From: a virus
Taxonomy: Duplodnaviria > Heunggongvirae > Uroviricota > Caudoviricetes
DNA: 44,584 nucleotides
Virus record (IMG/VR): IMGVR_UViG_2529292883_000001
Coordinates: 1-44,584 of that record
Reading direction: 5' to 3' (one strand)
Shown: one piece after another, positions 1,453-23,109 of the stretch
Layout: every line of letters starts with the position of its first letter
Position numbering within the stretch: the first letter of the stretch is position 1
Program-made: the position numbers and the translations under genes
The notes under the pieces: model-generated
What the model saw: the letters and a program-made list of their open reading frames with translations, nothing else
Database searches by the model: none
What the model was told of the DNA's origin: nothing

Positions 1453-1471
1453 TCCTCACGCTCCATAAACG

Positions 1472-1497
1472 ACAAAACCGCCCGCAGGCGGTTTCAC
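1472..1497 (-). terminator. A-run / GC hairpin (CCGCC-4nt-GGCGG) / U-run element between I and J
   Basis: Minus strand reads CCGCCtgcgGGCGG followed by TTTTGTCGTTT; A-run on the other side. Confidence 0.35.
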
Positions 1498-1511
1498 ATA
1501 AACATTTTGCA

Positions 1512-2159
1512 TCAGCGACCAATCACCACAACCTGACCACCGTCCCCTTCGTCTGCCGTGCTGATCTCCTGAGAAACCACACGTGACCCCACGCGCATTT
1601 CACCGTACAGAACGGGCAGAACATTGCCCTGGGCAACCATGTTATCCAGTGAGGAGAAATAGGTGTTTTGTTTGCCGTTATCTGTACTTGCTGCCGTGGG
1701 CGTCCTGGCTTTCGGTGCCAGCATCTGCGCCACTCCGCCCAGGATCATACTGGCCCCTGCCGCATACATGCCCGATACAGCCGCGGCACCCAGCCAGCCC
1801 ACAGGGCTCCACCATGCCACCGCAATCAGCGCCGCACCCAGCACTGCCTGAAAAACACCGCCACTTTTAGCTCCCGCCAGACGCGGCACAATGTGGATCA
1901 CGGCACCATTTGCCAGCGGCTCATTAAGACGGGCAGATAATTCATTTTCGCCTGCATCACGCCCGGCAATGCGCACCTGATACCAGCCCTCATTCAGTTT
2001 CTGGCGAAACGACGGAAGCTGCGTAGCCAGCGCCCGGATGGCTTCGGCCCCCGTTTTCACACGAAGGTCGATGCGGCGGCCAAATCGTTGTAAATCCCCG
2101 TAAAGGCAGATGCGTGCCATGCCCGGTGACGCCAGAGGGAGTGTGTGCGTCGCTGCCAT
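1512..2159 (-). CDS. I: Tail assembly protein I
   Basis: 215-aa ORF MAATHTLPLASPGMARICLYGDLQRF... ending ...GDGGQVVVIGR, recognised as lambda gpI. Confidence 0.9.
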   Translation of the reverse strand: MAATHTLPLASPGMARICLYGDLQRFGRRIDLRVKTGAEAIRALATQLPSFRQKLNEGWYQVRIAGRDAGENELSARLNEPLANGAVIHIVPRLAGAKSGGVFQAVLGAALIAVAWWSPVGWLGAAAVSGMYAAGASMILGGVAQMLAPKARTPTAASTDNGKQNTYFSSLDNMVAQGNVLPVLYGEMRVGSRVVSQEISTADEGDGGQVVVIGR

Positions 2160-2800
2160 TTGTCGGTATACCTCTCTCGTTTGCTCAGTTGTTCAGGAAT
2201 ATGGTGCAACAGCTCGCCGTCGCCGCAGTAAATGGCGGCATGATTCGGCACCGATGAACCAAAACAGCACAGCAGCACATCGCCCGGCTGCGCCTCTGTC
2301 AGTGCGACACGGTAAAAACCAGTCGCCTCCATATTGTCAAGATAGAGATTCTGGCCGTTACGCCACCAGTCATCCCCGCGATAAAAATCCGGCATCTCAA
2401 TTTCCGCCAGATGGTATGCATCCCGGAACAGCGTGTAACAGTCCGTCACCCCGTGCTCAAAGCGCCGCCCGGTAAGATGTGGCACACAGCGGAACTTGTG
2501 AATCGCCCCCCGGCAGACCAGCCACCACGGCAAATCACTCTGCACCTGCAGCCGCCTGTCGACCTCACTCAGCCAGGGCAGACCACCGGGGTGGCTGTGG
2601 ACCAGTGCCACAACCTCCCCCTGCATTTGTGCACGCAGCCAGTCCTCCGGCGACATCCGGAAATACGCCTCCGGCTCACCGGAGATATTCACGCAGGGAA
2701 AATATCTGTCCCCCTCCGGCGTTCTCACCACGAAGCCGCACGACTCCGCTGGCGCACATCGCCGGGCGTGCGCCAGAATCGCTGATTCTGTCTCTGTCAT
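2057..2800 (-). CDS. K: Tail assembly protein K (MPN/JAB plus NlpC/P60-type)
   Basis: ORF 2057..2875 trimmed to internal ATG at 2800 (MTETESAILAHARRCAPAESCGFV...), which abuts the L stop; HSHP motif; lambda gpK-like. Confidence 0.85.
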   Translation of the reverse strand: MTETESAILAHARRCAPAESCGFVVRTPEGDRYFPCVNISGEPEAYFRMSPEDWLRAQMQGEVVALVHSHPGGLPWLSEVDRRLQVQSDLPWWLVCRGAIHKFRCVPHLTGRRFEHGVTDCYTLFRDAYHLAEIEMPDFYRGDDWWRNGQNLYLDNMEATGFYRVALTEAQPGDVLLCCFGSSVPNHAAIYCGDGELLHHIPEQLSKRERYTDKWQRRTHSLWRHRAWHASAFTGIYNDLAAASTFV

Positions 2801-2804
2801 GGGT

Positions 2805-3503
2805 TTACTGCGAAAGTTTGTTAATGGAAAGGTAGCCGCCAAAATTGCCGACGTTATTGCGGAACTTGCAACCACTCAGGCATTTGCTGCATTTATCCTT
2901 CGTGATATCGGACGTTGGCTGGTCATATTCATCCGCGACCGCCGGGCCATCATAACCGCACTCATCGCCGCGGTAGATCCAGGTGCAGGTGTTGGCCAGC
3001 ATGATGCGCCCCGGAAAAACAGCACCATCCGTTTCCGTCGGTGTGGACAGCACAAAAGAGGCACTGACCGCGCTCAGTTCGCTGCACTGTTCGATGCGCC
3101 AGCGGCTGATCACCTCCTGCTCCGGATCGGCGTCACTGTTTCCGTTGACGAAGTTCACCGCATCCAGAAAACGGGCGTAAACCTTACGCCGGACCACCGT
3201 TCCGCCGACCAGACTCTGCAGATCTTCCGCCATCCCGGTGACCATGCCGTACAGATTAGAGACTTTAAGCGTTGGCCTTGCACTGGCCCCTTTGCCGTTC
3301 ATCTCAAAGCCGCTTCCCTGAATGGGATAAGCCTGATACTGCCGCCCCTGCCAGGTGACTGGTTCACCTTTTTCGTTCTGCTCATTACAGAAGAAATAAC
3401 GATCTCCGCCGACCTCTGTCAGATCAATTTCCCAGAGCACGACCAGCGCGGATTGCTCCGTTTTAGTGCACTCATTGAGTGTTTCCTGCTGTATATCCTG
3501 CAT
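2805..3503 (-). CDS. L: Minor tail protein L
   Basis: 232-aa ORF MQDIQQETLNECTKTEQSALVVLWEIDLTEVGGDRYFFCNE..., lambda gpL-like. Confidence 0.9.
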   Translation of the reverse strand: MQDIQQETLNECTKTEQSALVVLWEIDLTEVGGDRYFFCNEQNEKGEPVTWQGRQYQAYPIQGSGFEMNGKGASARPTLKVSNLYGMVTGMAEDLQSLVGGTVVRRKVYARFLDAVNFVNGNSDADPEQEVISRWRIEQCSELSAVSASFVLSTPTETDGAVFPGRIMLANTCTWIYRGDECGYDGPAVADEYDQPTSDITKDKCSKCLSGCKFRNNVGNFGGYLSINKLSQ

Positions 3504-3802
3504 CAGTGAGTGACCTCTTCAAAGGTACAGTTAAAATCGGTATACATGGTATTATCCGAAATGCTCCACTCCCTGCAGACAACCCGGACAGTCCTGTTGT
3601 GTTTTGGCGGACGCCACAAAAAAGCACGAATCCCGGCATGACGGGATAAAAAACTGTCCAGCGCGGCACGGGAATATTCATCCGTGACACGAAATACCGG
3701 TTTAAACGTTTTCAGATCTGCATTCAGACCACCAGCCCGTCGCTGTTCATATCCGTCACCGAACTTTACCGTAATAACAGATGGCTTTCGTGTCGTCTCC
3801 AT
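3503..3802 (-). CDS. M: Minor tail protein M
   Basis: ORF 3503..3889 trimmed to internal METTRKPSVITVKFGDGYEQR..., matching lambda gpM motif FGDGY.QR and its position between H and L. Confidence 0.8.
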   Translation of the reverse strand: METTRKPSVITVKFGDGYEQRRAGGLNADLKTFKPVFRVTDEYSRAALDSFLSRHAGIRAFLWRPPKHNRTVRVVCREWSISDNTMYTDFNCTFEEVTH

Positions 3803-3836
3803 CCCCTCGCGGGGGATCCAGTTAAAAACTTCAGAC

Positions 3837-6800
3837 TCAGGCACTGCATAATCCTCCGTCCCGACGTGATGACTGCATAATTGACACAACCCTGCTGTCG
3901 ATCAGATCCACCAGCCCCCTGGCTGACTGCGTATCTATCTCGCCATTGCTCCCTTTATTCTGAATACTGATGTGATACACGGGAGAATAAACAAATCCAC
4001 CGCCACCATTCACATTGCCAATGGCTCTGACTCCAAGAGAGCCGTCCGCTGCCCGAGTCAGTGGCATGATAGCTTCAGGCCCGGCCTCGCCCATCAGCCC
4101 GGCACCTTTCGCAAAAGCAAAATACGTCGGTGTATCCACAATGGTGTTACTGTAAGCACTCAGATTTGCCGATGTATAAACACCACCTTTTGCGTTTGCC
4201 ACTGCACCGGACAGCCAGTCGCCGACTGTACCAAGCCATCCTCCGGCACCGGACATGCTTTTGGAAAGTGACTTCAGCCCGTTAACGATGGCAGCGTTCA
4301 TCAGAATTTTTGAAACTTCCTGGAGAATTGAACTCCCCCAGTTTCTCCAGTCCACAACATTTCCGGCCAGTGCATCGGAAATATTTGATACCAGCCCGTC
4401 CATAGTGGAAACGACAGCATCTGCCGCCTGCGAAGCATAATCAGTGGCACTGTCTGCCCAGTTCGTCAGCCCCTCCTGGAGTCCGGCATTCCAGTTACTG
4501 CGTAAAGCATCAGCCTTTGCATAATAATCCTGCTGATCGCTGAGACGCTCTTCCAGATATTTTTTATTCAGTTCTTTCTCCTGTTTCCACAGGGCTTCTT
4601 CAATTTCTCCGGCCTGATACTGTCTCAGCAGCTCGTTATTTTTCTGCTCAAACGCCTGCCGGATACTCCACATTTCCTGGAGTCGTTCACGCATCCGTGA
4701 GCCTTCACCATATCCCAGCAACTGCGCTTCGTCAGATGCCCGGGCACTGGTATTACTGTCCGCCAGACTGCTCTCATACGCGGCAAGCTGCTCACGAATC
4801 TTTTTCTGGTCGATGAGTGCTGCATTCTGCAAAAGCGTTTTTTTCTGCGCTTCTGACAGGGTTGATAATTCGCCCTGACTGACCTGATATTTCATCTTAG
4901 CCAGTTCAGTATTCTGACCTGCCAGTGCTATTTGTTCTTTTTGCTGTTTAATCAGCCGTTTATAAATATCTTCTGTTTTTTCCGCTTCGGTCTTTTTATG
5001 CGCTTTGGGTTTATTTGCCTGGTTATTTCGCCAGGCATCCAGTGAGTTATTGATATAATTCTGTCTGGCTGTCTGATACGCCTCTCCCACAAAGCCGAGA
5101 TCATCCGCAGCATAACCCAGTCGGGCACGCTCACGGGCTTCCCCCTTCAGGCGGGACAGAGCCAGTTCGCGCTCGCTGTTATTCAGTGCGGTCTGCTGTT
5201 TATCATCCAGGGTGGCCTGTGGCAGCCGTAACGGTACATTCACCAGCCCCTGTCGCTGCTGAAGTAATTCATTACCAAGCCCGAGAAGGCGATTAAACTC
5301 GGTATGCTGCCCATTCATGATCAACAGGGACTGATACGCTTTGTTTTGTTCCGCGGCCTGTTGACGGATCAACGCCACCCGTCGCTCCTCCAGCCCGGCA
5401 AGCACATCCTGAATGGATTGCGCTTTGCCCTGCATTTGTGTGAGACGGGACTGTTCAACTGCCAGTTGATTTGTTGCTTCTGCAAGCCCTTCTGTGACAG
5501 TTTTTACCGACGTCATGTGGTTAATCATAAAACCGTTATCGGTTGTCCAGCCCGGGTTTGCCAGCACATACTGATAGCCAGCAATTTTTTCCTGTAAGGA
5601 TTTAATCTTACTTTTCTGCTCGTCAATTAACCTGTTTTGCTCATCAAGTGCCTGCCGCGTCTTTTCCTCATTATCTGACGCTTCAGGAAGCGACATTGCC
5701 GACGTTTTCTGGCGAATTTCGTCGATTGTTGCGGCATACTGGCGTGCAGATTCTCTGGCCTGCTCCTGATTCTGATACATCGTGTACCAGGCCGTCGCCC
5801 CCAGCATGACGAGTCCCGGCACACCACCAACCAACCCCAGCGCACCACTTAACAGACGACTCCCCACTGACGTGACAGTATTCAGCGTTGTCTGTGCCGC
5901 TGTTCTGGCCGCAATATTACGGGTAAGTGACGCTTGGGCAGCTGTCAGCTTCGCTTCTGCTGCGGCCTGCCTTTCGGTACCGCGAGCAGCAACAACCGCC
6001 TGTTGCGCACGATAAACCGCCCCACGCGCCCTGGCGGTTGCTATCTGTGTCCCCCGAAGTTGCGCTTCAGCAAGAGCCACTTCGTTTCTGGCTGCAGTAA
6101 TTAATCCGGCAGTTGCAGATCCAGCAGACGACGCCATATTGCCAAAATATCGGGCTACCCCGACGGCAACCAGTGCGCCAGCTGCAGCAGCCACGGTATC
6201 AATATTGTCTGCAACACCATTCAACACCCCGGTGAGTGTCTTTGTCACTCCGCTTGCCTCGTTCGCACCACCAACCCAGGCCATAAAGGCGTTTTCAACT
6301 TTGGTTGCAGAGGATGAAACAGTATCAGGCATTGCTGCATATTCATCACGCAACGCCCCAAGCTGACTAATCAGTGCAGGAACAACCTTATCGGCGGTCA
6401 GTTTTCCGTTATCCGCCATGGCCTTCAGATCCTTACGGGCAACACCCATTCCCGCAGCCAGCGCACGAATAACACGATCGCCGTTCTCATTCACAGAGTT
6501 AAATTCTTCACCGCGCAGCACTCCCTGCGCCAGTGCCTGACTGAACTGCGTGATCACCGAACTGGCTTCTGCTGTACTGGCACCGGATAATTTCAGGCCC
6601 GTGGAGATCGCCTCGGTGACTTTCAGTACCTCCTCAGAACTGTAGCCATACTCCCGCATGGAAGCTGCAGAGCGGGCAAAAAGGCTGGCGTTATCAGAAA
6701 ACGCCGTTCCCGTTCTCTGGCTGATTGCCATTAATTCACGTTGTGATACCTGAAAATCATCACTGGACTGTGAAGCCTGCTTCAGACGGGCATTTACTGA

Positions 6801-7082
6801 ATTCCACTCATCGGCGAGAGAAATAAGATGACCGGTAGCAAAAGCTCCGGCAAATGCCCCCGCCATATTCAGTGCCGAAGATTTAGCTGTATTTATCTGA
6901 TCCGTCACTTCTGCCAGTGCACGCCGCATTTCACGGGATGCAGCAGCGGACTGCCGGCCTCCGTTCTGCATGGTACGGTAGTAATCCTGCCCCATACGCG
7001 AAGCCCGGGAGATCTCTGACTGGAATGACCGGGAATTTGCCGAGATTTTAATAATCAGTTCACGTAATGTCGCCACACTCAT
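3837..7082 (-). CDS. H: Tail tape-measure protein
   Basis: 1081-aa ORF, Ala/Gln-rich coiled-coil-like composition, sits between G/T and M as in lambda. Confidence 0.9.
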   Translation of the reverse strand: MSVATLRELIIKISANSRSFQSEISRASRMGQDYYRTMQNGGRQSAAASREMRRALAEVTDQINTAKSSALNMAGAFAGAFATGHLISLADEWNSVNARLKQASQSSDDFQVSQRELMAISQRTGTAFSDNASLFARSAASMREYGYSSEEVLKVTEAISTGLKLSGASTAEASSVITQFSQALAQGVLRGEEFNSVNENGDRVIRALAAGMGVARKDLKAMADNGKLTADKVVPALISQLGALRDEYAAMPDTVSSSATKVENAFMAWVGGANEASGVTKTLTGVLNGVADNIDTVAAAAGALVAVGVARYFGNMASSAGSATAGLITAARNEVALAEAQLRGTQIATARARGAVYRAQQAVVAARGTERQAAAEAKLTAAQASLTRNIAARTAAQTTLNTVTSVGSRLLSGALGLVGGVPGLVMLGATAWYTMYQNQEQARESARQYAATIDEIRQKTSAMSLPEASDNEEKTRQALDEQNRLIDEQKSKIKSLQEKIAGYQYVLANPGWTTDNGFMINHMTSVKTVTEGLAEATNQLAVEQSRLTQMQGKAQSIQDVLAGLEERRVALIRQQAAEQNKAYQSLLIMNGQHTEFNRLLGLGNELLQQRQGLVNVPLRLPQATLDDKQQTALNNSERELALSRLKGEARERARLGYAADDLGFVGEAYQTARQNYINNSLDAWRNNQANKPKAHKKTEAEKTEDIYKRLIKQQKEQIALAGQNTELAKMKYQVSQGELSTLSEAQKKTLLQNAALIDQKKIREQLAAYESSLADSNTSARASDEAQLLGYGEGSRMRERLQEMWSIRQAFEQKNNELLRQYQAGEIEEALWKQEKELNKKYLEERLSDQQDYYAKADALRSNWNAGLQEGLTNWADSATDYASQAADAVVSTMDGLVSNISDALAGNVVDWRNWGSSILQEVSKILMNAAIVNGLKSLSKSMSGAGGWLGTVGDWLSGAVANAKGGVYTSANLSAYSNTIVDTPTYFAFAKGAGLMGEAGPEAIMPLTRAADGSLGVRAIGNVNGGGGFVYSPVYHISIQNKGSNGEIDTQSARGLVDLIDSRVVSIMQSSRRDGGLCSA

Positions 7083-7092
7083 TCTCCGGACG

Positions 7093-7113
7093 AAAAAAAC
7101 CGCCGAAGCGGTT
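7093..7113 (-). terminator. A-run / hairpin (CCGC-TTCG-GCGG) / U7 element between T and H
   Basis: Minus strand AACCGCTTCGGCGGTTTTTTT directly upstream of the H start codon. Confidence 0.35.
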
Positions 7114-7121
7114 ATGTTGAC

Positions 7122-7433
7122 TCACTGAGACACTATTAAAAGCGCGTTTTCCAGTCCGGCAAATGGATCTGAGACGCCTTCTGTCTGCTCTTGTTCCCAC
7201 TGAAGAAGCGCATCATTCAGTGGGACTTTGACACCCTGCGCACCGTAAACCGCAGAAACTATCTGGGCAGCCCGGATATCAGCCCGCTCGTCACCCAGCG
7301 GGCTGAACCTGTCAAATTCTGCCCACATCATGATTTCTGATGCGGACATTTCCCGGCGTAACTCTGACAATGTGCGCCCCATCCTGAGCGCCAGCATCAT
7401 CAGAAAACGCATCCCCGGAAGCGCTACTTTTTT
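7122..7433 (-). CDS. T: Tail assembly chaperone G-T, -1 frame extension (T segment)
   Basis: ORF 7122..7412 lies in the -1 frame relative to G; the -1 frame is open from the slip site (reads KKVALPGMRFLMM...); conserved lambdoid G-T arrangement. Confidence 0.7.
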   Translation of the reverse strand, partial: KKVALPGMRFLMMLALRMGRTLSELRREMSASEIMMWAEFDRFSPLGDERADIRAAQIVSAVYGAQGVKVPLNDALLQWEQEQTEGVSDPFAGLENALLIVSQ

Positions 7434-7810
7434 TTAACCTCGCCGGCATCACTGATCAGTTCCAGAGACTGCCGAAGAAGCCGCGCATGCACCGGGCCAT
7501 ACACGGCAATCACCTGTTCACGATCATCCTCTGAAAATACAGGTTGCAGTCCGGTATCACACAGAACATCAATGAACAGTTCAACATCTGCCTCCAGATT
7601 TCGGCGGGCGCGCTCCGCAACGGATAACGGTGTCTCATCATCTTTTGCTTTAACGATCTCCTGCCAGCGCAACCAGGCTTCTGCAGAAGGTTCCCGTAAT
7701 ACAACCGTTGCCCCTTCCCATTCAGGCACATCAACAGTTTTATGGCGAAACCCCGACATCGTTGCCAGTGCCAGATTGCGGATATTTTTAGTCATCACAT
7801 CTATCCTCAT
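7424..7810 (-). CDS. G: Tail assembly chaperone G
   Basis: 128-aa ORF between V and T/H, acidic, ends ...GEVKKK at the slippery run; position-based call. Confidence 0.7.
   Translation of the reverse strand: MRIDVMTKNIRNLALATMSGFRHKTVDVPEWEGATVVLREPSAEAWLRWQEIVKAKDDETPLSVAERARRNLEADVELFIDVLCDTGLQPVFSEDDREQVIAVYGPVHARLLRQSLELISDAGEVKKK
7427..7435 (-). other. Programmed -1 ribosomal frameshift slippery site (A AAA AAG) at the end of G
   Basis: G ends GTT AAA AAA AAG TAG on the minus strand; run of 8 A immediately before the stop. Confidence 0.6.
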
Positions 7811-8514
7811 TAACTGACGGTAACAGTGCAGGAAGTGGAGGTCACCTTGTTAACAGGGCTTGCTGAATCAGAAATCTCGCAGGTATACGCACCGGCATCA
7901 CCGGATGCTGCTGATGCCTTACTGAACGTTGCCGCCGTCTGTCCGGAAACAGGAGAACTACCTTTCTTCCAGACATAAGAATAAGGCGGCACACCACCGG
8001 CAGCCTCAACCACCATTTCGAGTTTCGCTCCGGCAGAAACCTGCAGCGTGCTGTTTAAATCGACCTTCACTTTCAGCGGCTCTGTCGTCAGCACAGGTTT
8101 ACCTTTCAGGCGCAGGGAAAACGTTGCAGCCACAACACCATTAGTTCCTGCAGACCAGGTATGCTGACGCACCTCTGCCATAAAGGTAAATCCGTTGCCT
8201 GACGGAAAAATAACTTTAAAGCCATACGTGGTGTCATTGTCATAGGCACTGCGCAACGCGTTCTGGGCAGCATTGAGGTAAAAGTTGCCTGACATGGAAA
8301 TCTCTGACGCGGCACCAAGGCCGTTAATATTTTCCTGCTCAACAGAACACAGCGTGGTGACATCAATATCCTGCTTTTGTCCTGCGGTAAACTGCACCTC
8401 TTTGATTGTACAGCTCAGGCCAAGATAGCTGGCAGAATCCAGGGTTTCTGCTGTTACCGGTGCAGACGAAATCATAATTTTCGTCAGTTGCGAACGCTCA
8501 AAATTAGAGGACAT
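7810..8514 (-). CDS. V: Major tail protein V with C-terminal Ig-like domain
   Basis: ORF 7810..8565 trimmed to ATG at 8514 (MSSNFERSQL...) preceded by AGGAG; C-terminal Ig-like segment ...GGVPPYSYVWKKGSSPVSG...YTCEISD... Confidence 0.8.
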   Translation of the reverse strand: MSSNFERSQLTKIMISSAPVTAETLDSASYLGLSCTIKEVQFTAGQKQDIDVTTLCSVEQENINGLGAASEISMSGNFYLNAAQNALRSAYDNDTTYGFKVIFPSGNGFTFMAEVRQHTWSAGTNGVVAATFSLRLKGKPVLTTEPLKVKVDLNSTLQVSAGAKLEMVVEAAGGVPPYSYVWKKGSSPVSGQTAATFSKASAASGDAGAYTCEISDSASPVNKVTSTSCTVTVS

Positions 8515-8526
8515 ACTCGTCTCCTG

Positions 8527-8552
8527 AAAATAAAAAACCCGCCAGCGGCGGG
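8527..8552 (-). terminator. A-run / hairpin (CCCGCC-GCT-GGCGGG) / U-run element just upstream of V
   Basis: Minus strand CCCGCCGCTGGCGGG followed by TTTTTTATTTTC, between the 8574 gene stop and the V RBS. Confidence 0.35.
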
Positions 8553-8573
8553 TGGGTAAAATCATTAACGACC

Positions 8574-8918
8574 TCAGGCTATTACCTGAAATTCAAGCGT
8601 GGCTCTGCTCAGACGGGAATCAGGATCATAACCCTGAGTTTTAGAAATAACGGAGGGTGCAAGTTGCCTTACCGCATCAAGCGCCTGCTCACGGATATCA
8701 TCTGCGTCATCAGGTACTGTTGCCCAGACATCGATCTGCACGGTAATTCTGGATTCAGCCTGACCATCAAGCACATCAGACGCAGTGTCAGACACCACAG
8801 AAAATACCAGCCATGGCGGAGATACCGCAGGCTTTCCCTCCGTCAGCGGGACCACATAAGGATAAACCTGTTCTCCGGCCAGTTGAGACAGCAGGGAATA
8901 CAGTGTGGTCTCTCTCAT
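8574..8918 (-). CDS. Tail completion / tail terminator-position protein
   Basis: 114-aa ORF immediately upstream of V; assigned by position, no confident family. Confidence 0.45.
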   Translation of the reverse strand: MRETTLYSLLSQLAGEQVYPYVVPLTEGKPAVSPPWLVFSVVSDTASDVLDGQAESRITVQIDVWATVPDDADDIREQALDAVRQLAPSVISKTQGYDPDSRLSRATLEFQVIA

Positions 8919-19589: not shown

Positions 19590-20411
19590 CTATCGCGTTA
19601 CCCTCTTTAACTGCCGCTCCGCCCATGCCTCTTCAATGTCAAACCGAACCACCAACGTATCGTAAAAGCGTTTCACTGATTTTTTCCACGTATCAAGCGT
19701 GATAGCACTCGTCACTTTGCATATGGCATTAAATGCCTCCGTTGATGGCAGCCTTTCATAGCCCCGACCGCTACAACGCTGGCAGTTCCTGATTACAGGC
19801 ATCCCCCGTTTTTCCGACTCTTCTCGATGAATGGCAACACCACGCCCACGGCAGTCTTTACAGGCAGTCGAAATCTCTCCCTTCCCTTTACATTCAGGAC
19901 AGGAAACCTTCACCACCTCCCGGATTTTTTTCCATTCTTCCCAGTAAGACGGATACACGCCTTTTGTACACTTTGCCCATACTGGCGGCTTACCATCCGG
20001 ATACTGAACCTTGTTTGTAAAAACTTCGCTTTCAATAAATTTTTCCCCACGGCAACAAGGACACTGCTTTTTGCTCGCTGCACTACGGGCATAATCCTCA
20101 AAAGCATACGAAGCCATAATGCGCATCACTGCCGGTTTTATTTCTGCCGGGAGTTTCCTTAACGCCGCGACGCGATCGCACCGACTTAATGCATAATCTG
20201 CCAGTAATTCTGTTGCCCGCATCCTGTCATTCATACTAATGCCCATTTTTCCCAGGAACGCGGAAAATCCCATCTCAGCCCGGTTCTGTGTCATACCCTG
20301 CGCAGCCATTACATCAGTGATACTCAGCGCATCTTTTGACGTCGAGATGGGCGCATCAGTCAGGCCTGGCGATTTTGGAGAATAGTATTTCGGTAAATCT
20401 TCCAGTTTCAT
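19590..20411 (-). CDS. Q: Lambda-type antitermination protein Q with expanded CxxCxGxG zinc-finger repeats
   Basis: 273-aa ORF; N-terminus YYSPKSPGLTDAPISTSKDALSITDVMAAQGM and C-terminus TWKKSVKRFYDTLVV...VTR parallel lambda Q; three CxxCxGxG units. Confidence 0.8.
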   Translation of the reverse strand: MKLEDLPKYYSPKSPGLTDAPISTSKDALSITDVMAAQGMTQNRAEMGFSAFLGKMGISMNDRMRATELLADYALSRCDRVAALRKLPAEIKPAVMRIMASYAFEDYARSAASKKQCPCCRGEKFIESEVFTNKVQYPDGKPPVWAKCTKGVYPSYWEEWKKIREVVKVSCPECKGKGEISTACKDCRGRGVAIHREESEKRGMPVIRNCQRCSGRGYERLPSTEAFNAICKVTSAITLDTWKKSVKRFYDTLVVRFDIEEAWAERQLKRVTR

Positions 20412-21970: not shown

Positions 21971-21996
21971 AAAAAAACAAAACCCGCCGAAGCGGG
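21971..21996 (-). terminator. Rho-independent terminator downstream of the lipoprotein moron
   Basis: Minus strand CCCGCTTCGGCGGG followed by TTTTGTTTTTTTC. Confidence 0.55.
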
Positions 21997-22126
21997 TATG
22001 CTAAAACAAACTGAAGGTAATATGCCGGACTTGTAAAGGAACGATAGAATAATTATCGGATTAAATCCTGACTCAATCCATAGGGTTTACAGCGTTTTCA
22101 CTAATAATTTACCGTCCCGCTATACA

Positions 22127-22572: not shown

Positions 22573-22592
22573 GGAAAAAACGCCGAAGCGGG
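22573..22592 (-). terminator. Weak hairpin plus U6 downstream of hok
   Basis: Minus strand ACCCGCTTCGGCGTTTTTTCC; stem only 3-4 bp. Confidence 0.3.
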
Positions 22593-22662
22593 TTAAGTGC
22601 GGGTGCGTTGAGGATGCCTGACACATCAGAGGTGGCGAGGGATTTCTCCCCCGCCTGGTCTC

Positions 22663-22818
22663 TTACTCCTCAGGTTCGTAAGCTGTGAAGACAGTGACCT
22701 CCGTCTGGCCGGTTCGGATTCGTACCTCGCAGAGGTCTTTCCTCGTTACCAGTGCCGTCACAATGACGGTAATACAGATGACGATCAGGGCGACTAACAT
22801 CGCCTTTTGCTGCTTCAT
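22663..22818 (-). CDS. hok: Hok/Gef-family type I toxin
   Basis: ORF 22663..22875 trimmed to internal ATG at 22818 preceded by AAGGAG; product MKQQKAMLVALIVICITVIVTALVTRKDLCEVRIRTGQTEVTVFTAYEPEE matches the Hok family. Confidence 0.85.
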   Translation of the reverse strand: MKQQKAMLVALIVICITVIVTALVTRKDLCEVRIRTGQTEVTVFTAYEPEE

Positions 22819-23109
22819 AGCCTGCTTCTCCTTGCCTTTCGGCGCGTAAGAGGCTAACCTAGATTTGCCGTTCATAGATTGAGCCTCAGATTAATGTTAA
22901 GCGTCTTGCCGGACGCGTAATGTTAACTGGGGCTTTTCTCTATCTGCCTTTTGGTGTTCATGCCTGAGACAGATAGCCTCAAGCACCCGCTGCAATTCTA
23001 CTTAACTCTCCTTTTCCCGCAAACCGTTTTTATCCCCAGCGGCAAATCGAATACACCACCAGCGCCACCGCCATCGCAATTCCTACCGTTGTTAATGCTT
23101 CAGGCCAGG

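Follow-up and report, generated by a model that had tools for sequence, protein, structure and literature searches.

Why would a late operon read from a single promoter keep terminators that an antiterminated polymerase ignores? The question is raised by three hairpins among the tail genes of IMGVR_UViG_2529292883_000001, a viral record of 44,584 nucleotides that was analyzed over its full length (positions 1 to 44,584; hereafter, the window). The elements, named E1, E2 and E3, lie in the gap between genes I and J, in the gap between T and H, and upstream of the major tail protein gene V. We favor the reading that they are genuine intrinsic terminators, which Q-modified polymerase would read through and which would insulate the tail genes from unmodified polymerase, including polymerase started at the promoters of inserted genes; its probability is put at about 0.5. 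As elements they are already known, being the orthologs of terminators annotated in HK97-like phages, with E1 identical in lambda. New here are the conservation of the hairpin before V in every relative compared and the place of E2 as the 3′ boundary of a moron slot.

Hairpins in the wide gaps of the late operon

The window is a lambdoid prophage; its head, neck and tail tube module are of the HK97 type, its tail tip of the lambda type. Its closest phage record is PhiR49_2 (96% identity), and near-identical prophages are present in many Escherichia coli chromosomes. Proteins annotated by the Prokaryotic Genome Annotation Pipeline (PGAP) in one genome carrying such a prophage were mapped onto the window and gave the gene order holin, lysis genes, HNH, TerS, TerL, portal, protease, major capsid protein (MCP), four neck genes, tail-completion gp17, V, G, T, H, M, L, K, I and J. 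The late genes are all co-oriented on the minus strand and tightly packed. A Q-type late antiterminator gene (19590..20411, minus strand; Pfam PF03589 Antiterm, E 3e-50) lies upstream of this operon, so that E1–E3 stand downstream of Q and in the same direction, with V, H and J beyond them, as would be expected of internal terminators overridden by Q.

All three elements named by the original prediction were recovered as a hairpin followed by a T-run on the coding strand, here the minus strand; the "A-run" described for each of them is this T-run read on the plus strand. E1 (1467..1494) occupies the 59-nt gap from the I stop at 1512 to the J start at 1452, and has an 8-bp stem, AAACCGCC-TGCG-GGCGGTTT, followed by TGTCGTTT. 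E2 (7093..7113) lies in the 45-nt gap between the T stop at 7122 and the H start at about 7076, and reads AACCGC-TTCG-GCGGTT (6 bp) and then TTTTTCG. E3 (8527..8553) lies in the 59-nt gap between the gp17 stop at 8574 and the V start at 8514, which has the Shine–Dalgarno (SD) sequence AGGAG, and reads ACCCGCC-GCT-GGCGGGT (7 bp) and then TTTTTATTTT. The free-energy scoring that had been proposed gave hairpin ΔG values of −13.1, −8.0 and −12.0 kcal/mol for E1, E2 and E3. Each element combines a GC stem and a loop of 3–4 nt with a stem-adjacent U-tract, the anatomy of an intrinsic terminator; the tract is T7 in E2 (seven consecutive T, five of them after the stem), T6AT4 in E3, and weaker in E1, with T4 followed by GTCGTTT. 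All three sit immediately before an SD sequence.

A strict motif, defined as a perfect stem of 4 bp or more, all G/C, with a loop of 3–6 nt, followed by TTT with at least five T in eight, was searched on both strands of the 44.6 kb. It matched five times, always on the minus strand, and E1, E2 and E3 account for three of these matches; 200 dinucleotide shuffles gave 0.79 ± 0.81 matches, with a maximum of 3. A generic terminator scan showed no overall enrichment in the window (26 matches vs 19.9 ± 4.7); it ranked E3 first, also found E2, and missed E1 because a G-U extension of the stem uses up the T-run. Placement is a stronger argument than the motif count. Among the roughly 22 junctions between TerS and J, just four are at least 40 nt wide, namely MCP/next gene (50 nt), gp17/V (59 nt), T/H (45 nt) and I/J (59 nt), the remainder being at most 14 nt or overlapping. 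Every one of the four wide gaps holds a GC hairpin, three of them with a T-run, and the four hairpins divide the operon exactly at the borders of its assembly modules.

The fourth gap hairpin, GGGGCGCAGAAGTGCGCCCC (10236..10255, minus strand; ΔG −16.7), lies 8 nt past the stop of the major capsid gene and has no T-run, the next bases being TGTTCTGAC. This hairpin and the placement at module borders both speak for the main rival explanation, which we consider unlikely: that the hairpins stabilize or delimit processed mRNA after Q has carried polymerase through. They would stop 3′-to-5′ exonucleases once the adjoining AU-rich tract has been cleaved, or shield a newly made 5′ end, and so cut the 20-kb transcript into segments of differing half-life (head, neck, V-G-T, H-I and J). 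A U-rich tract beside a stem is a plausible RNase E site, which also counts for this explanation.

Several other accounts of the elements were rejected. Bidirectional terminators would need a T-run on the other strand as well; the plus-strand bases past the hairpins are TGGGTAAAA for E3, ATGTTGAC for E2 and TCACATAA for E1, with only TTTCACAT after the E1 hairpin and no T-run at all after E2 and E3. Internal promoters that restart transcription past each element found no favor either, with 10 promoter-like sites against 15 expected and none that fits in the gaps. An alternative fold, in which the SD region of H pairs with the loop and 3′ arm of E2, has a minimum free energy of −11.0 over 46 nt; the z-score of this fold is only −0.83, and YYZ-2008 does not keep the pairing. 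A scan of the whole window at the Rfam gathering threshold gave no match at E1, E2 or E3.

Conservation of the hairpin and U-tract before V

E3 was followed across relatives of the V gene. Starting from an alignment of five V homologs, 59 loci were collected from species-representative genomes of Salinicola and of more than 20 genera within the Enterobacterales, at V identities of 44–79%; together with the window and four phage records they gave 60 unique sequences upstream of V. The relatives of V in IMG/VR were set aside as a source of covariation, being too close (97–100% identical). A perfect hairpin directly abutted by a T-run was present in all 60 sequences, against a detector background of 0.17% in shuffled sequences and 1.7% in random 65-nt windows from the same loci. 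The hairpins comprised 45 distinct sequences (e.g., GACCCGCC..., GCCGCC..., GCCACC..., AAGCTGC..., GACCGTC... and AGACCGC...), with ΔG from −7.1 to −16.1 (median −10.7), and RNAalifold on 31 of the pre-V sequences returned a consensus hairpin with compensatory double changes at six of six pairs. E3 is the most conserved of all the elements. Its retention in 60 of 60 relatives through 45 stem variants shows that hairpin and U-tract are under real selection.

The constancy of the U-tract bears directly on what kind of hairpin is being kept. A hairpin that served stability only would not need a U-tract abutting its stem, so that a tract kept in 60 of 60 pre-V copies points to a terminator rather than to an mRNA stabilizer. 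The position of E3 is also awkward for stabilization, as it would protect the low-copy neck genes upstream and not V.

The distance from the pre-V hairpin to the ATG is nearly constant (18–27 nt, median 21) and carries a conserved GGAG SD sequence. This, and the fact that E1, E2 and E3 each directly precede an SD sequence, would fit a role as insulators of translation initiation, in which the hairpin ties up the only G-rich stretch and the U-rich tract offers an open S1 or standby site, so that the strong ribosome-binding site (RBS) of the next gene fires independently of the gene before it. The sequence on the 5′ side of the hairpin agrees with such a role, having 3.3% G and pairing with the RBS region less than shuffled sequences do. 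We regard it as quite improbable all the same: no GC hairpin is needed to keep an RBS open, a boost to translation is not expected for the low-copy products of H and J, and the same type of hairpin ends morons with no gene close behind.

The pre-V leader, from the upstream stop codon to the hairpin (8554-8573 in the window), has a median length of 18 nt and no conserved sequence. Its composition over 1009 nt is A 0.30, C 0.41, G 0.033 and T 0.26, i.e., G-depleted and C-rich. Sequestration of the SD sequence by this C-rich flank was considered and rejected, since the duplexes are weaker than those of composition-matched shuffles (−4.0 vs −4.8 kcal/mol; 10/39; Wilcoxon p 2e-4, in the wrong direction). 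The leader may point to another, hitherto undescribed function of the pre-V element where the head and tail parts of the transcript meet, a suggestion that we hold as doubtful.

The gap that contains E3 is easily overlooked in annotation. Gene V runs on the minus strand from 8514 to 7810 (7810..8514), its true start at 8514 being indicated by M1 and S2, which are invariant in the alignment, and by the conserved GGAG. The mechanical open reading frame (ORF) of V reaches 8565, through E3. The deposited V annotations of PhiR49_2 (9812-10567) and YYZ-2008 (1932-2717) likewise begin upstream of the hairpin and run through it. Gene callers thus extend the major tail gene across the hairpin in several database records and hide the gap.

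E2 and the moron slot between T and H

Morons in general carry a promoter and a terminator of their own, and gene 15 of HK97, the first-named moron, occupies the slot between T and H (PMC3594210). No change was seen in the E2 hairpin across 80 near-identical prophages from IMG/VR (it is counted as invariant in 73 of the 80), with a T-run of 7–9, and its flanks vary. In seven of the 80 (L024, L028, L040, L043, L057, L058 and L075), a different sequence stands upstream of an unchanged E2. Pairwise alignment of one locus to the window placed this insert at about 2890-3320 of L024; it is about 430 bp long, with a GC content of 0.39 against 0.505 in the flanking genes. Its left breakpoint falls within the last ~35 nt of T, and the right one coincides exactly with the 5′ edge of E2. 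The product is a 113-aa membrane and Zn-ribbon protein (PF13248, phrog_8436). A TTGACT box lies upstream of the insert ORF, with an imperfect −10 element; a generic scan called no promoter there. From this arrangement, E2 is the predicted terminator of a moron slot, at the position of HK97 gene 15.

Inserts at these junctions are not confined to close relatives. HK106 (3471-3659 of the locus) and a Klebsiella phage (3522-3755) carry YebO-like genes (PF13974) between T and H, each followed by a terminator, and a prophage of Enterobacter intestinihominis (L107, 1690-2477) has a 176-aa KilA-N gene inserted after the tail-completion gene and ahead of V, flanked on either side by a terminator-like hairpin. 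Taken with the inserts in the L024-type prophages, these occurrences would make all three junctions insert sites bounded by terminators. The window itself shares with the gene 15 paradigm the slot between chaperone and tape-measure genes and the type of hairpin; it differs in having no extra gene or promoter before E2, and E1 and E3 adjoin no insert. Its gaps of 45–59 nt hold no ORF and no promoter-like site, and an extra gene beside the terminator, as in a moron, is found only in the relatives (the L024 type, HK106, the Klebsiella phage and L107).

Hairpins of the same design had also been claimed beside the hok and lipoprotein morons of the window, and both were found. The lipoprotein copy is full, ACCCGC-TTCG-GCGGGT followed by TTTGTTTTTTT (21982..21997, minus strand), downstream of the lipoprotein ORF (22519-22127). 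The hok copy is degenerate, AACCCGC-TTCG-GCG followed by TTTTTT (22575..22593, minus strand), downstream of hok (22818-22666). The 12-mer CCGCTTCGGCGG is common to E2 and to these two terminators (three matches vs 0.2 expected), which may reflect convergence on the C(UUCG)G tetraloop. The description of the hairpins as one family therefore stands as a statement of design, supported by the 12-mer that E2 shares with the hok and lipoprotein terminators; descent of E1–E3 from a common repeat was rejected, as their alignment gives just the generic CCGC/GCGG core and a T-run.

The exact breakpoint at the 5′ edge of E2 and the recurrent CCGC-TTCG-GCGG core in the hok and lipoprotein terminators led us to consider that terminators at uncoupled junctions act as pre-existing sockets and as recombination joints for the gain and loss of morons. 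We treat this as a tentative idea with the odds against it. If it were true, promoter-bearing cargo would plug in upstream of a terminator already standing, and terminators within the operon would shape where lysogenic-conversion genes enter tail operons.

A further view takes the hairpins for neutral leftovers that do nothing at present, left behind by morons since lost or by the exchange of modules. Many relatives have no E2, and the T/H hairpin is the same whether the site is empty, as in the window, or occupied, as in the seven prophages. Against this stand the invariance of E2 in close relatives despite its varying flanks and the survival of the pre-V hairpin, by way of compensatory changes, through 45 sequence variants spread over more than 20 genera, and we consider it very improbable, the least credible of the explanations weighed here.

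The reading of E1–E3 as terminators overridden by Q accommodates the inserts in another way: sites with a terminator would tolerate an insert harmlessly, as the terminator would already stand between the insert and the next tail gene. We favor insulation because the T-run abuts the stem in 60 diverged pre-V copies and because E2, unchanged, ends an inserted gene. In this respect the doubling of E2 as the terminator of an insertion slot would tie operon insulation to sites where prophages gain extra, often host-affecting genes, a link that can be tested.

Other phages and the weight of the terminator reading

The GenBank record of the HK97-like phage HK106 (JQ086369) annotates a "rho-independent terminator" past the major head gene, another where gp11 (tail completion) meets the major tail gene, and another immediately ahead of the tape-measure gene. 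Their positions match those of the capsid-gene hairpin, E3 and E2 in the window, with the same layout of hairpin, T-run, SD sequence and ATG and with V 72% identical, so that the elements are orthologous by position. The stems differ, with AACCCGCC-TGAT-GGCGGGTT in HK106 and ACCCGCC-GCT-GGCGGGT in the window, and the pre-tape-measure terminator of HK106 follows a gene-15-type moron, whereas the window has the terminator without the moron. The site equivalent to the capsid-gene hairpin is an annotated terminator in HK106.

In lambda (NC_001416, ~15463-15482), the I/J hairpin equals E1 base for base and its flanks nearly so; the lambda record has no feature annotated at this site. The comparison with lambda and HK97 suggested by the original prediction thus found E1 unchanged in lambda and the equivalents of E2 and E3 in HK106, where they are annotated terminators, but neither E2 nor E3 in lambda, whose U/V gap is 7 nt and whose T and H overlap. 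Hairpins also surround the lambda major capsid gene E, in the D/E and E/FI gaps. The one after E is analogous to the capsid-gene hairpin of the window, and the D/E gap has a terminator-like hairpin with T7.

Elements at the same junctions recur with other sequences elsewhere. The YYZ-2008-like prophages of E. coli O157:H7 Sakai have CCCGC-CGCGT-GCGGG with T6 at gp11/V, AACCGC-TGAG-GCGGTT with T7 at T/H, and ACAGGCACCC-TCCG-GGGTGCCTGT at I/J. The distant phage mEp234 has a different hairpin at I/J, followed by T6, and a Serratia phage has an I/J hairpin with a weak T-run. No T/H element is present in the Morganella, Proteus and Providencia relatives, and no I/J element in Mannheimia. Among the loci collected for the pre-V comparison, terminator-like elements also follow the capsid gene and, in a short-V subgroup, V itself; directly before the tape-measure gene they are found in roughly half of the loci (about 28/53, a combined estimate). 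The capsid gene and V are each bracketed by hairpins in many relatives, and this bracketing, with that of lambda E, counts for mRNA stabilization, as does the I/J hairpin of virulent phages described below.

In other lineages, the late operons of phage L and P22-like phages and of SPP1 have predicted terminators at module borders inside a single-promoter operon, as in the window; the genes are different, and the elements are analogous rather than homologous. Late gene clusters of SPP1 are delimited by predicted terminators (PMC6316719). For phage L, intra-operon terminators are described as common, with roles that "are not known", and two proposals were made, partial termination or the halting of transcription begun without antitermination (PMC8022706). 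The roles put forward in the original prediction, i.e., restriction of tail-gene expression to Q-modified polymerase, tuning of stoichiometry and stabilization of processed mRNA, restate a question already acknowledged for phage L. What held of that interpretation is that the elements are shaped like terminators and lie on the coding strand within a late operon that depends on Q; the three roles are not separable by sequence alone.

Partial termination would make E1–E3 attenuators that lower distal transcription even for Q-modified polymerase and thereby set stoichiometry. For comparison, T-phi of T7, after gene 10, also stands at a major structural gene within a long stretch of late transcription; it is a true partial terminator for T7 RNA polymerase, with no antiterminator involved. 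Positions after the capsid gene, before low-copy H and before J would suit a stepwise decrease, and attenuation would account for the hairpins of virulent phages; it is also among the roles proposed for phage L (PMC8022706). E3, the most conserved element, is out of step with it, as it precedes V, whose product is the most abundant tail protein. Q-modified polymerase is highly resistant to terminators, and the relative expression of lambda late genes is reportedly set by translation initiation, to judge by the title of Sampson et al. 1988 (PNAS 85:5439). Attenuation is therefore improbable in our view.

The favored mechanism can be laid out as follows. Unmodified polymerase, arising from weak internal promoters, moron promoters or read-in, would form the GC hairpin on the U-tract and fall off at E1–E3, and the tail genes would thereby stay unexpressed in the lysogen and until Q comes into play. 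Once induction has occurred, polymerase modified by Q would ignore the hairpins and produce the full late transcript. We infer termination itself, its override by Q and insulation as the selected function from the anatomy, strand, position and conservation of the elements and from the reuse of E2 in the moron slot. For phage L, too, the halting of non-antiterminated transcription is among the proposed roles (PMC8022706).

Several observations weigh against this mechanism. A clear I/J hairpin with a T-run is also present in two virulent T1-like phages, Rtp (175-235 of the locus) and Salmonella phage 36 (175-275). Neither is known to have lysogeny or a Q, so that the insulation of a prophage would not be the general reason for the hairpin. 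Lambda lacks E2 and E3, and the element before the tape-measure gene is missing from about half of the V-family relatives, which makes at least E2 dispensable; E1 and E2 are each dispensable in some relatives. The efficiency of E1, with its interrupted U-tract (TTTTGTCGTTT), and of E2, with its short stem (ΔG −8.0), may be low. The capsid-gene hairpin without a T-run suggests that gap hairpins may be kept for a reason other than termination. In the literature we found no 3′-end or termination data for the E1–E3 sites and no direct experiments on them. Term-seq and differential RNA-seq (dRNA-seq) data of E. coli O157:H7 Sakai have been generated (PMC7547250), in a paper that also reuses cross-linking datasets for Hfq and RNase E (BioProjects PRJNA197291 and PRJNA310426).

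The I/J junction is larger in Stx-type phages (PhiR12_2_star, YYZ-2008 and an Stx2d phage). Their I/J spacer (about 140-400 of the loci) is about 250 nt long, with an antisense-facing terminator adjoining the I stop and a sense terminator before J. It could hold a small antisense gene or a small RNA; Rfam gave no match in this spacer.

A further strict-motif match, CCGC-TTTT-GCGG followed by TTTTTTCTTTTC (17984..17995, minus strand), lies between a tRNA cluster and the holin gene and is weak, with a ΔG of only −6.6. The cluster near it comprises five tRNAs (18208-18510, minus strand). Between it and Q lies an AT-rich, moron-like ORF for a 239-aa multi-pass membrane protein (18631-19350, minus strand), which has no Pfam match, belongs to phrog_1521, to which no function is assigned, and contains a terminator-like match at 19011-18988. 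Elsewhere in the window, Rfam matches at the gathering threshold mark DicF (30157-30208, plus strand), STnc490 (44145-44268, plus strand) and sok (22813-22988, minus strand), as well as two further tRNAs, at 34634-34720 on the minus strand and 35712-35784 on the plus strand.

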